From NCBI RefSeq assembly GCF_002854065.1, contig NZ_CP024147.1: a DNA stretch of 64,000 nt; one strand, 5' to 3'. The notes below the pieces were generated by a model. It was given only the letters and a program-made list of their open reading frames with translations. It did not search any database and was not told the DNA's origin. This DNA is from Escherichia coli (GTDB lineage Bacteria > Pseudomonadota > Gammaproteobacteria > Enterobacterales > Enterobacteriaceae). Made by a program: the position numbers and the translations under genes. Positions 1 to 26,952 of this stretch are shown here, one piece after another; the stretch's first letter is position 1; every line of letters begins with the position of its first letter.

Positions 1-780
1 AAAACGGGTCGGATCGCGCAACATAACGCCGGCTAACAACAGTTTTTCGGCCTGTTCGGACTGGTAAACGCGCTCCAGACGAGAGAGTTGCAGGCGGTTA
101 TTCACGCCTTCAACTTCGCTTAAACGTTGTGGATGAACAGCAACTATTTCACGTCCTTCCTGATACGCCAGCGCAATAATGTCGGTGATGTAGTATTCGC
201 CCTGAGCATTATTGTTGGTCAGCTTCGCCAGCCAGCGTTTCATATCTGCGCCGTTAGCGATCAGAATGCCGGTGTTGATTTCCTGAATCTGACGCTGCTC
301 ATCGGTGGCATCTTTATGCTCAACAATGCCAGTAACTTTGCCGTTTTCACGGGTGATACGTCCATAACCGGTCGGATCATCCAGTTTCACCGTCAGCAGA
401 CCAATGCCACCCTGCGGTTTAGCATCACGCAGACGCTGGAGTGTTTCGACAGAGATCAGCGGCACGTCGCCGTAGAGCATTAAAATGTCTTCATCATCGG
501 CAAAGAAAGGTGCGGCCTGCTGCATGGCATGACCCGTACCCAGCTGCTCTGCCTGAAGCACCCAGTTCAGGTTGTCGTCTTTCAGCGCCTGTTTTAGCAG
601 ATCGCCGCCGTGACCATACACCAGGTGAACGTGCGCTGCGCCTAATTCATTCGCAGCATCAATGACATGCTGAACCATCGCTTTCCCGGCAAGGGTATGC
701 AGCACTTTCGGAAGATCGGAATACATGCGCGTGCCTTTACCTGCGGCAAGGATCACTACGCTCATAACATTATTCAACAT
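1..780 (-). CDS. glmU: Bifunctional GlmU (N-acetylglucosamine-1-phosphate uridyltransferase / glucosamine-1-phosphate acetyltransferase); N-terminal part only, 3' end lies left of the window
   Basis: Reverse complement of 761-780 reads ATGTTGAATAATGTTATGAG (MLNNAMS), the GlmU N-terminus as recalled; frame stays open to position 1; sits upstream of the atp operon as in E. coli. Confidence 0.85.
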
Positions 781-1607: not shown

Positions 1608-3880
<2,273 letters not shown>

Positions 3881-3930
3881 GAGCTTCTCCTCAATGCCTT
3901 GCGGCCTGCCCTAAGGCAAGCCGCAAGACG

Positions 3931-5472
3931 TTACCAGGATTGGGTTGCTTTGAAGGAATCGAGGATGCCTTTCAGCTTGCCTTCGATTTCGTCGTTGTAG
4001 CCACCGGTCTGGTTGATCTCTTGCATCAACGGAGCGTGATCACGGTCGACGTAAGCCAGCAGAGCGGCTTCGAAGCTGCCGATTTTCGACAGTTCAACAT
4101 CCGCCAGGTAACCACGTTCTGCTGCGAACAGAACCAGAGACTGCTGCGCAACGGACATCGGCGCATACTGTTTCTGTTTCAGCAGTTCGGTCACTTTTTG
4201 ACCGTGGTCAAGCTGCTTACGAGTTGCATCGTCAAGGTCGGATGCAAACTGAGAGAACGCTGCCAGTTCACGATACTGTGCCAGAGCGGTACGGATACCA
4301 CCGGACAGTTTTTTCATGATCTTGGTCTGTGCTGCACCACCAACACGGGATACGGAAATACCCGGGTTAACCGCAGGACGAATACCGGCGTTGAACAGGT
4401 TGGTTTCCAGGAAGATCTGACCATCGGTAATGGAGATTACGTTGGTCGGAACGAACGCAGAAACGTCACCCGCTTGAGTTTCGATAATCGGCAGCGCGGT
4501 CAGTGAACCGGTTTTCCCTTTCACTTCACCTTTGGTGAAAGCTTCAACGTATTCGGCGTTAACACGCGCAGCACGCTCCAGCAGACGAGAGTGGAGGTAG
4601 AATACGTCGCCCGGGAATGCTTCACGTCCTGGCGGACGACGGAGCAGCAGGGAGATCTGACGGTAAGCAACAGCCTGTTTAGACAGGTCATCGTAAATGA
4701 TCAGCGCATCTTCACCGCGGTCACGGAAGTATTCGCCCATTGCGCAACCGGCATACGGTGCCAGGTATTGCAGTGCAGCGGATTCAGACGCGGTTGCTAC
4801 CACAACGATGGTGTTAGCCAGTGCGCCGTGCTCTTCCAGTTTACGTACCACGTTAGAAATGGTGGACGCTTTCTGGCCGATAGCGACATAGATACATTTG
4901 ATACCGGAATCGCGCTGGTTGATGATGGCATCGATAGCCAGTGCGGTTTTACCTGTCTGACGGTCACCGATGATCAATTCACGCTGACCACGACCGATTG
5001 GGATCATGGAGTCAACGGCTTTATAACCGGTCTGTACCGGCTGATCTACGGACTGACGTTCGATAACGCCCGGAGCGATTGCTTCTACAGCAGAGAAGCC
5101 GTCGTGATCCAGCGGACCTTTACCGTCGATTGGTGCACCCAGAGTGTTAACCACACGGCCCAGCAGGCCACGGCCAACCGGAACTTCCAGGATACGGCCA
5201 GTACACTTAACTTTCATGCCTTCGGCAAGGTCAGCGTACGGACCCATAACAACCGCACCTACAGAGTCGCGCTCGAGGTTCAGTGCGATAGCGTAACGGT
5301 TACCCGGCAGGGAGATCATTTCACCCTGCATACAATCGGCCAGGCCGTGAATGCGGATAACACCGTCACTTACAGAAACAATAGTACCTTCGTTGTGAGC
5401 TTCACTCACAACATTGAACTGAGCAATGCGCTGCTTGATCAGTTCGCTGATTTCGGTGGAATTCAGTTGCAT
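3931..5472 (-). CDS. atpA: ATP synthase F1 alpha subunit
   Basis: 513-aa ORF with P-loop GDRQTGKT. Confidence 0.97.
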
Positions 5473-22783: not shown

Positions 22784-22918
22784 TCTTAAATCAGGCATTA
22801 TGACCTGATGGTGACATCAATGCGTCATCAACAGAGATTGTGGATGTACGCGTAATATAAAGAAAAGCAGGGCACGCGCCACCCTAACCCGGTGGCGCAT
22901 TTTATGGACATCCCGAAT

Positions 22919-23848
22919 ATGCAAAACGCAGGCAGCCTCGTTGTTCTTGGCAGCATTAATGCTGACCATATCCTTAATCTTCACTCTTTTCCTACTCCAG
23001 GCGAAACCGTAACCGGTAACCACTATCAAGTCGCATTTGGCGGCAAAGGCGCAAATCAGGCAGTGGCAGCAGGACGTAGCGGCGCGAATATCGCGTTTAT
23101 TGCCTGCACTGGCGATGACAGTATTGGCGAGAGTGTTCGCCAGCAGCTCGCCACTGATAACATCGATATTTCTCCGGTCAGCGTGATCAAAGGCGAATCA
23201 ACAGGTGTAGCGCTGATTTTTGTTAATGGTGAAGGCGAGAATGTCATTGGTATTCATGCTGGCGCGAATGCAGCCCTTTCCCCTGCGCTGGTGGACGCGC
23301 AACGTGAGCGTATTGCTAACGCATCAGCATTATTAATGCAGTTGGAATCACCACTCGAAAGTGTGATGGCAGCGGCGAAAATCGCCCATCAAAATAAGAC
23401 TATCGTTGCGCTTAATCCGGCTCCGGCTCGCGAACTTCCTGACGAACTGCTGGCACTGGTGGACATTATTACGCCAAACGAAACGGAAGCAGAAAAGCTC
23501 ACCGGTATTCGTGTTGAAAATGATGAAGATGCAGCGAAGGCGGCGCAGGTGCTACATGAGAAAGGTATCCGTACTGTACTGATTACTTTAGGAAGTCGTG
23601 GTGTATGGGCTAGCGTGAATGGCGAAGGTCAGCGTGTTCCTGGATTCCGGGTGCAGGCTGTCGATACCATTGCAGCCGGAGATACCTTTAACGGCGCGTT
23701 AATCACGGCGTTGCTGGAAGAAAAACCGTTGCCAGAGGCTATTCGTTTTGCTCATGCCGCCGCTGCGATTGCCGTAACGCGTAAAGGCGCACAACCTTCC
23801 GTACCGTGGCGTGAAGAGATCGACGCATTTTTAGACAGACAGAGGTGA
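22919..23848 (+). CDS. rbsK: Ribokinase
   Basis: PfkB-family sugar kinase motifs (GGKGANQA, DTIAAGDTFNGA); start placed at MQNAGSLVVLG (309 aa). Confidence 0.93.
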   Translation: MQNAGSLVVLGSINADHILNLHSFPTPGETVTGNHYQVAFGGKGANQAVAAGRSGANIAFIACTGDDSIGESVRQQLATDNIDISPVSVIKGESTGVALIFVNGEGENVIGIHAGANAALSPALVDAQRERIANASALLMQLESPLESVMAAAKIAHQNKTIVALNPAPARELPDELLALVDIITPNETEAEKLTGIRVENDEDAAKAAQVLHEKGIRTVLITLGSRGVWASVNGEGQRVPGFRVQAVDTIAAGDTFNGALITALLEEKPLPEAIRFAHAAAAIAVTRKGAQPSVPWREEIDAFLDRQR

Positions 23849-23851
23849 CGC

Positions 23852-24844
23852 TTGGCTACAATGAAAGATGTTGCCCGCCTGGCGGGCGTTTCTACCTCAA
23901 CAGTTTCTCACGTTATCAATAAAGATCGCTTCGTCAGTGAAGCGATTACCGCCAAAGTTGAAGCGGCGATTAAAGAACTCAATTACGCGCCATCAGCTCT
24001 GGCGCGTAGCCTCAAACTCAATCAAACACATACCATTGGCATGTTGATCACTGCCAGTACTAATCCTTTCTATTCAGAACTGGTGCGCGGCGTTGAACGC
24101 AGCTGCTTCGAACGCGGTTATAGTCTTGTCCTTTGCAATACCGAAGGCGATGAACAGCGGATGAATCGCAATCTGGAAACGCTGATGCAAAAACGCGTTG
24201 ATGGCTTGCTGTTACTGTGCACCGAAACGCATCAGCCTTCGCGTGAAATCATGCAGCGTTATCCGACAGTGCCTACCGTGATGATGGACTGGGCTCCGTT
24301 CGATGGCGACAGCGATCTTATTCAGGATAACTCGTTGCTGGGCGGAGACTTAGCAACGCAATATCTGATCGATAAAGGTCATACCCGTATCGCCTGTATT
24401 ACCGGCCCGCTGGATAAAACTCCGGCGCGCCTGCGGTTGGAAGGTTATCGGGCGGCGATGAAACGTGCGGGTCTCAACATTCCTGATGGCTATGAAGTCA
24501 CTGGTGATTTTGAATTTAACGGCGGGTTTGACGCTATGCGCCAACTGCTATCACATCCGCTGCGTCCTCAGGCCGTCTTTACCGGAAATGACGCTATGGC
24601 TGTTGGCGTTTACCAGGCGTTATATCAGGCAGAGTTACAGGTTCCGCAGGATATCGCGGTGATTGGCTATGACGATATCGAACTGGCAAGCTTTATGACG
24701 CCACCATTAACCACTATCCATCAACCAAAAGATGAACTGGGGGAGCTGGCGATTGATGTACTCATCCATCGGATAATCCAGCCGACCCTTCAGCAACAAC
24801 GATTACAACTTACTCCGATTCTGATGGAACGTGGTTCGGCTTAG
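23852..24844 (+). CDS. rbsR: LacI-family ribose operon repressor
   Basis: 330-aa ORF with N-terminal HTH ([24 protein letters not shown]) and periplasmic-binding-protein-like domain. Confidence 0.95.
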
Positions 24845-26237
24845 ATTTACGCTGTCTTTTGATCAAATTATTACCATCGGTTGTTTTCAGAAGCATGAAC
24901 ATTGCTGCTGAAGCAACAGTAATAATGCCCATTGTGATAAACGTATAGTGGAATTGTTCGACAGTCGTTGTGCCTTCCATTCCTTCATAAACGCGAAGGA
25001 CGGCCGCACTTACAGCTACGCCTAAACTGATAGACAGTTGCTGCGTGACCGCCAGAACACTGTTACCGCTGCTGGCGTTGTCATCGGTCAGATCGGCAAG
25101 TGTGATGGTATTCATCGCGGTAAACTGCGTCGACATAGCCATCCCTAATATAAACAACGGCAAGATCAGCATCCATATTGCCATTGCCGGTGATTGCAAA
25201 GAGAACTGAGCGATCATTAGCCCAATAATCACCGTGATCCCCACTAATGTATGGCGATAGCCCAGACGACGTAAGACTTGGGTAACCATCGATTTTGCAA
25301 TAATGGAACCTAACGCTGTCGGTGCCATCATACAGCCGGCAATAAACGCCTGATAACCAAATCCTACCTGTAACATCAATGGCATAAGGAACGGTACACA
25401 GCCGGTCCCCAGACGGGTTGCAATATTGCCTACGATACCTATCGAGAAAGTGCGGGTTTTAAATAAATCTAATGAAATTAATGGGTTTGGCGTGCGTCGT
25501 GCATGGAGAATATAGAGAAGCAGTAACCCGATGCTGGTGACAATTACCGTCAAGGCAATCCAGCTGGCGACAATCTTTTCCCCGAATAGCTCTATTCCGC
25601 TTGAGAAGAGAACAAGGCTGAGGCCAAACAGCAAAAAGCCAGTGATATCGAATCTGCGTCGTGCGGTGGTGAAATTGGGCATATGTTTGCGCGCGTAAAG
25701 AAGGCCCGCAATACCTATGGGGATATTGATTAAAAATATCCAGTGCCAGGTTGCCCAGGTGACCAGCACGCCGCCAAGAACGGGGCCTAAAATTGGCCCC
25801 ACCAGACCCGGCATGGCGACAAAATTCAATACTGGAAGAAGTTCATTACGAGGATAAGCGCGCAGTAAGGCCAGCCGAGCAACAGGCATCATCATTGCGC
25901 CGCCTATCCCCTGAATAACCCGGAAGACAACCAGCTGTGGTAGCGAATTAGAAAGTGCGCAGGCCAGAGAACCCAATGTGAACAGACTCACGGCAAGGGT
26001 AAAAATGCGACGCGTACCGAAGCGATCGGCTAGCCATCCGCTTACCGGAATAAGCATCGCCACCGTCAGCGTATAACTGATGATGGCTGATTGCATCGCG
26101 AGAGGAGAACGATTAAGGCTATGAGCGATTGCGGGTAAGGCGGTATTCAGAATAGTGGCATCAAGTGCCTGCATGAAGAAGGCCATCGCCGCGATCCACG
26201 GCAAACCCGCCATACTGCGCTTCTTTTTATCGCTCAT
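24810..26237 (-). CDS. hsrA: MFS-family efflux transporter HsrA (YieO)
   Basis: 475-aa polytopic membrane ORF; 3' end overlaps the rbsR 3' end by 35 bp (convergent). Confidence 0.85.
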
Positions 26238-26259
26238 TCAATGTCCTGTTATCGGGTTA

Positions 26260-26952
26260 TCACTTATCAGGTGAGCGTAGCAGCGCCTGACAAGCTTTAA
26301 ATGCCGCGTCGCCATCGCTTTGGATAATCGCATCGACAATCGCCTGATGCAGATCCAGCTTTATCACTGTGTCGCTGGTAATTGACGTGAAGTAAGTGTG
26401 ATAAACCGAATGGAATAGCGAGGCGAATGAGGTCAAAAACGGATTGGCGCTCATTTCATAGATATGCTCATGCCAGGCCATATCGACTTCGATCCAGCGT
26501 TCACGGCGAAAGTTCTCTTTTAATGCCGCCATTTCGGCCATTAACGTATTGAGATGCGCTTTCTGTTCCGCGGTGCCAACCGTTGCTGCCAGTAGGCAAG
26601 CTTGTGGCTCCAGACAGATACGCATAACCAGAAAGTGATTGATGACCTGATGAAAGTTCTCTTCTGTCATCCACCAGGTAAGCAATTCCTGATCAAGAAA
26701 ATTCCAGTTCGATTGTGGCATGACCCGGGTACCAATTCGTGGTCGCGGTAAAACCATCCCTTTTGCCGTTAACGTTTTGACCGCTTCGCGTACCGCTGTA
26801 CGACTCACTCCAAATTGCTCGCCCAGCTCAATCTCACCAGGCAAAATGGTGCCGGGTTCATATTCACCTTTTAAGATCCGTTGCGCCAGCTTCTCAGCCA
26901 GAACATACGAAAGGTTTTTCTGTGCAGCTAACTGTTGTGCGCTTAAAGGCAT
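26260..26952 (-). CDS. yieP: GntR/FadR-family transcriptional regulator YieP
   Basis: 230-aa ORF with N-terminal winged HTH (GEQFGVSRTAVREAVKTL) and FCD-type C-terminal domain. Confidence 0.85.
   Translation of the reverse strand: MPLSAQQLAAQKNLSYVLAEKLAQRILKGEYEPGTILPGEIELGEQFGVSRTAVREAVKTLTAKGMVLPRPRIGTRVMPQSNWNFLDQELLTWWMTEENFHQVINHFLVMRICLEPQACLLAATVGTAEQKAHLNTLMAEMAALKENFRRERWIEVDMAWHEHIYEMSANPFLTSFASLFHSVYHTYFTSITSDTVIKLDLHQAIVDAIIQSDGDAAFKACQALLRSPDK

Follow-up and report, generated by a model that had tools for sequence, protein, structure and literature searches.

Convergent genes that share their coding ends are a described feature of bacterial genomes. In E. coli, 75 of the 663 overlapping adjacent gene pairs are convergent CDS overlaps, and such overlaps originate through stop loss or frameshift (Palleja et al. 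2008, PMC2478687; Huvet and Stumpf 2014, PMC4161906). At the level of transcripts, 276 of 370 convergent operon pairs (75%) have complementary 3' ends with a mean overlap of 286 nt, and this happens with or without an overlap of the coding sequences (Conway et al. 2014, PMC4161252). Mapped regions of Rho-dependent termination lie antisense to genes in 51.5% of cases (Adams et al. 2021, PMC7815308, citing Peters et al. 2012). In the data of Huang et al. (2020, PMC7373196), 87% of genes yield at least 1 RPM of p19-captured dsRNA, and dsRNA density is 37.9-fold lower at convergent 3' overlaps than at divergent 5' overlaps. Pairs of this kind have also been catalogued as excludons with a coverage criterion that a CDS overlap passes almost automatically, and the sole worked functional example in that catalogue is relBE-ydfV (ExcludonFinder 2025, PMC12288877).

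The overlap described here joins rbsR and hsrA (yieO) in a 64,000-nt stretch of an E. coli genome (contig NZ_CP024147.1), referred to below as the window. rbsR is a 330-aa ORF on the plus strand (23852..24844) with its TAG stop at 24842-24844, and hsrA is a 475-aa ORF on the minus strand (24810..26237) with its TAA stop at 24812-24810. The 35 nt from 24810 to 24844 are common to the 3' coding ends of both genes in the ORF list and the sequence, and RefSeq annotates the same convergent CDS overlap. The K-12 RefSeq annotation has identical geometry (2353..3345 on the plus strand and 3311..4738 on the minus strand of locus L001). The first-pass annotation had placed the two gene ends and the 35-bp overlap at these same positions, and the ORFs and sequence agree with it. 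Its figure of about eleven codons per gene is correct when the stop is counted, the overlap consisting in each gene of 2 nt, ten sense codons, and the stop. Position 1 of each rbsR codon stands opposite position 1 of an hsrA codon, position 2 opposite position 3, and position 3 opposite position 2.

The stops were read directly from the DNA, and no earlier in-frame hsrA stop occurs within the 34 nt ahead of the junction. A different true stop for either gene, which the first-pass annotation had named as a way in which it could be wrong, was not found. The length of the overlap is as expected by chance. Continued across the antisense strand of rbsR, the hsrA reading frame meets 26 stops over about 330 codons, a spacing of roughly 13 codons, and hsrA ends at the first of these after ten codons; a ten-codon open run is therefore typical. 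In the neighbouring minus-strand frame of the window, a TAA that would yield a 4-nt overlap is still present.

Family models, a solved RbsR structure, and RefSeq show that rbsR and hsrA are both real protein-coding genes, one on each strand. The plus-strand ORF is RbsR, the LacI-family ribose operon repressor: it matches the equivalog model NF007743 over its full length (1-330/330, 695.6 bits against a cut-off of 531), its Pfam LacI and Peripla_BP_3 domains extend up to residue 329, it matches the solved ribose operon repressor 9ny7 in the PDB, and it aligns with PurR to residue 329. The minus-strand ORF is an MFS transporter of the DHA2 type, with MFS_1 at residues 17-406. The subfamily model NF007799 spans only residues 13-465 of HsrA and leaves the last ten residues outside. 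This ORF is named hsrA in published K-12 data tables, and PGAP calls it 'mdtD, multidrug transporter subunit MdtD' through NF007799. The name mdtD usually refers to a gene of the mdtABCD operon, and its use for hsrA in RefSeq may be misleading. Family annotation is also the source of the description of HsrA as an efflux pump, which we treat as putative.

The upstream neighbour of hsrA, encoded on the same strand and separated from it by 22 nt, is yieP (26260..26952, minus strand), a regulator of the GntR/FCD family identified from its ORF, its Pfam GntR and FCD domains, and the annotation. Judging from this spacing, yieP and hsrA are probably co-transcribed, which would be the likely source of minus-strand transcription into the overlap. 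In the K-12 annotation a 16S rRNA gene begins about 480 nt upstream of yieP (window position ~27430 onward). Most draft contigs in the species set described below end roughly 1 kb upstream of hsrA, and these breaks probably sit at the rRNA operon.

The first-pass annotation had raised the question of whether E. coli strains keep the overlap, and nearly all do. A 651-nt junction query matched 5414 of 5426 complete E. coli genomes at 95-100% identity, and a 95-nt query centred on the overlap was found in 5393 of the 5426 (at least 95% identity and at least 80% coverage). The two most divergent of the full-length E. coli examples compared both retain the exact 35-nt overlap. Two natural disruptions were identified. 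In strain 1162C (NZ_CP051659.1, locus L083 2258-3508) the IS3-family element ISEc52 is inserted in the overlap, at a site equivalent to window position ~24811, and rbsR and hsrA are both annotated as pseudogenes that lack their C-termini. In strain JNE181771 (NZ_AP027156.1, locus L002 2501-2519) a deletion runs from the 3' end of rbsK through rbsR into the 3' end of hsrA; it fuses a truncated rbsK to a truncated hsrA and removes the whole of rbsR along with the overlap.

Beyond E. coli, we compared the best 80 HsrA loci, taking one genome per species and calling stops by scanning from the gene starts. All 80 are from the Enterobacteriaceae. In every one, rbsR is convergent to hsrA with essentially no spacer, the junction ranging from a 3-nt gap to a 53-nt overlap. 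The 35-nt overlap occurs in 34 species, and a 4-nt overlap, the commonest short class in this sample, in twenty-five. The remaining species have a 2-nt gap (eight), a 9-nt overlap (six), a 53-nt overlap (five), a 3-nt gap (one), or a 24-nt overlap (one Kosakonia). Nearly all 80 species share the RbsR C-terminal motif QLTP.L..RGS[AV]. The conserved core of HsrA ends with KDGRNLIKERHK and is followed by a tail that differs among the species in both length and sequence.

We placed these states on a neighbour-joining tree built from HsrA and RbsR, with Buttiauxella as the root. Short states of about -3 to +9 nt occupy its deepest branches (Buttiauxella, bacterium LSJC7, Atlantibacter, Siccibacter, and Franconibacter), and short states are also found in Kosakonia, Phytobacter, Pseudescherichia, Kluyvera, a Raoultella-labelled genome, Trabulsiella, Yokenella, and Pluralibacter. 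The 35- and 53-nt states are limited to two clades, one composed of Escherichia, Salmonella, Citrobacter, and Intestinirhabdus and the other of Enterobacter, Leclercia, Lelliottia, and Huaxiibacter. Because the deepest branches carry short states and the long states are confined to these two clades, the tree indicates that tight abutment is ancestral in the sampled Enterobacteriaceae and that the 35-nt overlap is derived. The two-gene tree would be compatible with either one or two origins of the 35-nt state. One assembly titled 'Chryseobacterium sp. 18061' (CACSKA010000004.1, L031) has an Enterobacteriaceae rbsR-hsrA locus that falls beside 'Citrobacter sp. 18056' (L027) on the tree; judging by this position, the assembly is probably mislabelled or contaminated.

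Relative to rbsR, hsrA is read in three different frames across the overlap classes, the first comprising the 4-nt overlap and the 2-nt gap, the second the 9- and 24-nt overlaps and the 3-nt gap, and the third the 35- and 53-nt overlaps. This pattern indicates that the change at the junction was an indel and not a simple stop-codon substitution. The 53-nt class (loci L032, L034, L035, L036, and L046, from Lelliottia, Huaxiibacter, and an Enterobacter MAG) differs in the other partner: its rbsR has lost its own stop and is six codons longer, with tails such as ...RGSVSAGGDL. Each gene has thus extended into the other, in different lineages.

Variation within the shared nucleotides follows the rbsR reading frame. 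Across the 35-nt clade, mean entropy in the overlap is 0.14, 0.22, and 0.54 at rbsR codon positions 1, 2, and 3, and rbsR position 3 is position 2 of hsrA. Residues of the HsrA tail swap radically between species (N/S/T, H/R/P, E/K/V, and S/Q/P/R), and the invariant P-S-E in the tail is dictated by conserved Leu-Met codons of rbsR. The ten-residue tail is missing altogether in 41 of the 80 species. With the variability phased to rbsR, the tail outside the family model, and its residues radically variable, the comparison indicates that the shared sequence is set by rbsR, with the HsrA tail for the most part a passenger.

Some of the evidence hints that the tail is not entirely free. In the 35-nt clade, the last eleven rbsR codons show 0.59 times the synonymous-site variability of the forty-nine before them, a ratio below every sliding eleven-codon window of the clade (range 0.60-1.04). 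In the short-overlap species that serve as a control, where hsrA leaves those rbsR codons uncovered, the same ratio is 1.07. Truncated-tail variants number zero among the 39 species of the 35- and 53-nt classes, in which the frame and tail length are constant. The overlap may therefore add some constraint of its own, as judged from eleven sites in related species. Ascertainment was considered as a source of the low synonymous variation and explains little of it, two of the ten tail codons being able to become stops through a change at the rbsR third position.

We also looked at how transcription might end around the junction. A terminator scan of positions 23500-26500 found no sites on the plus strand, and the minus-strand sites did not exceed chance expectation and lay well away from the junction. 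Rfam gave no matches at the junction at E <= 1, and the RNA folds of the junction on the two strands were unremarkable (z = -0.40 and -1.60). A bidirectional intrinsic terminator, in the form of a GC-rich hairpin flanked by A/T runs, is absent from the gene ends. The statement in the first-pass annotation that there is no room for a terminator thus holds in part: there is no intergenic DNA and no site resembling an intrinsic terminator, but the hsrA transcript does have a terminator, a Rho-dependent one located inside rbsR.

That terminator comes from published DirectRNA-seq with and without bicyclomycin (BCM), in which a Rho region at MG1655 position 3938923 on the minus strand is labelled 'antisense rbsR' (Adams et al. 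2021, PMC7815308). Its read counts are 102/32 without BCM and 164/143 with BCM, for a Rho score of 2.78 (P = 7.6e-6). These published data record a bicyclomycin-sensitive loss of downstream RNA for the hsrA transcript. With coordinates converted through the sequence that flanks a nearby Term-seq end, the region falls at window position ~24548, about 262 nt beyond the hsrA stop; the position is approximate because the Rho score is computed from 800-nt windows. The hsrA read-through RNA antisense to rbsR accordingly covers 24548..24809 on the minus strand, and past the hsrA stop it would be untranslated. Just upstream of the Rho region, at +121..+240 past the hsrA stop, a composition scan of the minus strand shows a C-rich, G-poor stretch (24570..24689, C/G 1.3-1.6) that is a candidate Rho loading (rut) site. 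The tables of Adams et al. (2021, PMC7815308) contain no minus-strand Term-seq end within rbsR, in keeping with heterogeneous ends produced by Rho at a low level of expression.

For the opposite direction, Adams et al. (2021, PMC7815308) report neither a 3' end nor a plus-strand Rho region antisense to hsrA, where coverage is low. The rbsR read-through RNA would have stretches with more C than G at +101..240 and +441..600 in hsrA, and Rho may terminate the rbsR transcript there. Less plus-strand transcription reaches rbsR and the overlap in the first place, since most rbs transcription stops after rbsB. The terminator scan places an intrinsic terminator between rbsB and rbsK (22876..22898, plus strand), and this coincides with a strong Term-seq 3' end at MG1655 3937278 whose score is 84576, compared with 865 for the end inside rbsR (PMC7815308). 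The latter end (MG1655 3938325, plus strand; window 23950) is located at a perfect hairpin, ATCGCTTCGTCAGTGAAGCGAT, in the 5' part of rbsR (23925-23946, plus strand), which the terminator scan also picked up as a palindrome. About 60 nt downstream of it is a plus-strand Rho region at MG1655 3938387 (window ~24012; score 3.77, P = 1.4e-13; PMC7815308). Together these suggest premature termination within rbsR that drains plus-strand transcription ahead of the overlap. Read counts are low on both strands around rbsR and hsrA (PMC7815308).

The two transcripts meet as RNA as well. Among the p19-captured duplexes of 21/22 bp that Table S3 of Huang et al. (2020, PMC7373196) gives as perfectly paired with 2-nt overhangs, one of 22 bp (AUGGAACGCGGUUCGGCUUAGA / UAAGCCGAACCGCGUUCCAUCA) is labelled 'hsrA rbsR'. 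Its strands have 158 and 232 reads (1.85 and 2.72 RPM), and among the table rows listed it is the sole duplex assigned to rbsR or hsrA. We mapped the site of this dsRNA, an in vivo product of RNase III type, to 24822-24845 of the window (sense strand 24824-24845, antisense strand 24822-24843) with one mismatch, a strain difference; 21 of the 22 nt of the sense strand are within the overlap. The published data thus show that rbsR and hsrA RNAs do pair, at a low level. The same table also has a 22-bp duplex in yieP that is more abundant (932 and 505 reads, U00096.2 3938858-3938882); it would correspond to window ~26461-26485 if the coordinate offset of the rbsR/hsrA duplex is assumed, and it points to antisense transcription within yieP.

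In addition, a catalogue of 165 convergent excludons of E. coli, each detected in half or more of 58 MG1655 RNA-seq samples, includes rbsR-hsrA (ExcludonFinder 2025, PMC12288877). Two features expected of an excludon, overlapping transcripts and RNase III-processed dsRNA, are therefore found in published data for this pair, the dsRNA at a low level, while repression of one gene by expression of the other would be putative. The first-pass annotation had reasoned that transcription of each gene must pass into the other, and this is borne out by the Rho region in rbsR, the RNase III-type duplex in the overlap, and the excludon listing. Its further suggestion of antisense interference between the ribose operon and the transporter is plausible in kind, unproven, and probably weak, given the low transcript levels. 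A Salmonella paper that treats rbsR at length is silent on hsrA and the overlap.

Taken together, it is likely that this is an ordinary tail-to-tail overlap resulting from gene packing and not a dedicated regulatory device. Under such a scenario, rbsR and hsrA would already have stood stop to stop in the ancestor of the sampled Enterobacteriaceae. A small indel just ahead of the junction would then have put hsrA into another frame in Escherichia, Salmonella, and Citrobacter, and in Enterobacter and its relatives. The new hsrA frame would read ten codons of rbsR antisense until it reached the TAA formed by the rbsR Leu-Thr codons CTT ACT. From then on rbsR would dictate the shared sequence, and the extra ten-residue HsrA tail would be mostly a passenger. 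With no spacer, a polymerase arriving from either side would enter the opposite gene, and Rho could terminate the RNA there, untranslated as it would be past its stop codon; such termination is documented on the hsrA side and would be expected on the rbsR side. Where both RNAs are present they could pair over the overlap, and RNase III would cut the duplex, as documented at a low level. Any mutual dampening of expression would probably be small because both transcripts are scarce.

Several other readings were weighed against this one. Among the long convergent overlaps in databases, many are artefacts in which a 3' end has been wrongly extended (PMC2478687, PMC4161906), so that one of the stops could be wrong here too, for example if sequencing had introduced a frameshift or if hsrA had been falsely lengthened at its 3' end. 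That reading is essentially refuted: both stops are read straight from the DNA with no earlier in-frame stop, the same sequence recurs in over 5300 complete genomes, the frame is kept in 39 species, the RbsR end is backed by a family model and a solved structure, and 35 nt is under the 60-nt range of the artefact study. Head-on polymerases might instead set the 3' ends in place of Rho, as programmed polymerase collisions are published to end convergent pairs in E. coli. We consider this highly improbable, as the published mechanism requires a nascent-RNA stem-loop and none stands out at the junction, collisions are rare when both strands are transcribed at a low level, and the minus-strand end is bicyclomycin-sensitive (PMC7815308).

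A functional convergent excludon would be a more interesting outcome, with the zero spacer selected and transcription of rbsK-rbsR and yieP-hsrA antagonistic through polymerase collision and RNase III, thereby linking ribose regulation to the transporter. The pair does belong to the E. coli 'excludome' in at least 50% of the 58 RNA-seq samples (PMC12288877), although the coverage criterion flags CDS overlaps almost automatically. There is a duplex of RNase III geometry in the overlap, but it is near the 1 RPM floor that 87% of genes reach (PMC7373196). The zero-spacer arrangement in all 80 of the best loci could reflect selection, or zero spacing may persist simply for want of neutral DNA to expand. 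Since, moreover, both transcripts are scarce, the rbs transcript is largely terminated upstream, and the length of the overlap varies from -3 to +53 nt, we regard such an excludon as unlikely. It is also decidedly unlikely that the HsrA tail is functional and that the overlap is retained for the sake of nucleotides required by both proteins. The drop in the rbsR synonymous ratio under hsrA relative to the short-overlap species and the constant tail length over 39 species would fit such dual-coding selection. Against it, the tail lies outside the family model and is absent in just over half of the species, its residues vary radically, its constant P-S-E is imposed by the rbsR Leu-Met codons, and the synonymous signal comes from eleven sites in phylogenetically non-independent species. 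The combination of a selected zero spacer, acting as a working excludon that ties the transporter to the ribose operon, with a real dual-coding constraint is very unlikely.

Gene packing as the origin of the overlap has little consequence for new biology, and the overlap itself is already known from the reference annotation, the published excludon map, and the dsRNA and Rho read-through in published supplementary tables. It does have a practical side. Because the last ten codons and the stop of each gene sit inside the other, a clean whole-gene deletion of either one, or an insertion in the overlap, changes both proteins. The ISEc52 insertion of 1162C and the deletion of JNE181771 are natural cases in which both genes were inactivated at once. 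Phenotypes of rbsR or hsrA knockouts are therefore worth checking for a double-gene effect. The species comparison also offers a small example of how tail-to-tail overlaps grow, by a frame change at an abutting junction and a run to the next antisense stop.

Compared with the systems described at the outset, the locus resembles the fre-fadA convergent dsRNA cluster in yielding p19-captured dsRNA from the 3' overlap of adjacent genes (Huang et al. 2020, PMC7373196). It resembles Rho-dependent antisense read-through (PMC7815308) in its untranslated antisense RNA, its region with more C than G, and its bicyclomycin-sensitive drop in coverage. Here such termination is documented for the hsrA side only, with a modest score of 2.78 and low coverage. 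With convergent excludons (PMC12288877; PMC4161252) it shares complementary 3' RNA ends and RNase III-cut dsRNA, and the pair is listed among them. It differs in that the rbsR/hsrA overlap takes in coding sequence and not 3' UTRs alone, and in that rbsR and hsrA have no evident opposing functions, the listing being by coverage and the mutual exclusivity putative. The closest match is with the convergent overlapping pairs of prokaryotes (Palleja et al. 2008, PMC2478687; Huvet and Stumpf 2014, PMC4161906). As in those, the 3' ends of two genuine genes on opposite strands are shared, one gene has been extended at its 3' end by frameshift or stop loss, and the overlap is kept among related species (35 nt in 34 of them, a 53-nt derivative in five, and a shorter overlap in thirty-two). 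There is no essential difference from these pairs; at 35 nt the overlap is longer than the 4-nt class and well below the suspicious 60-nt range.
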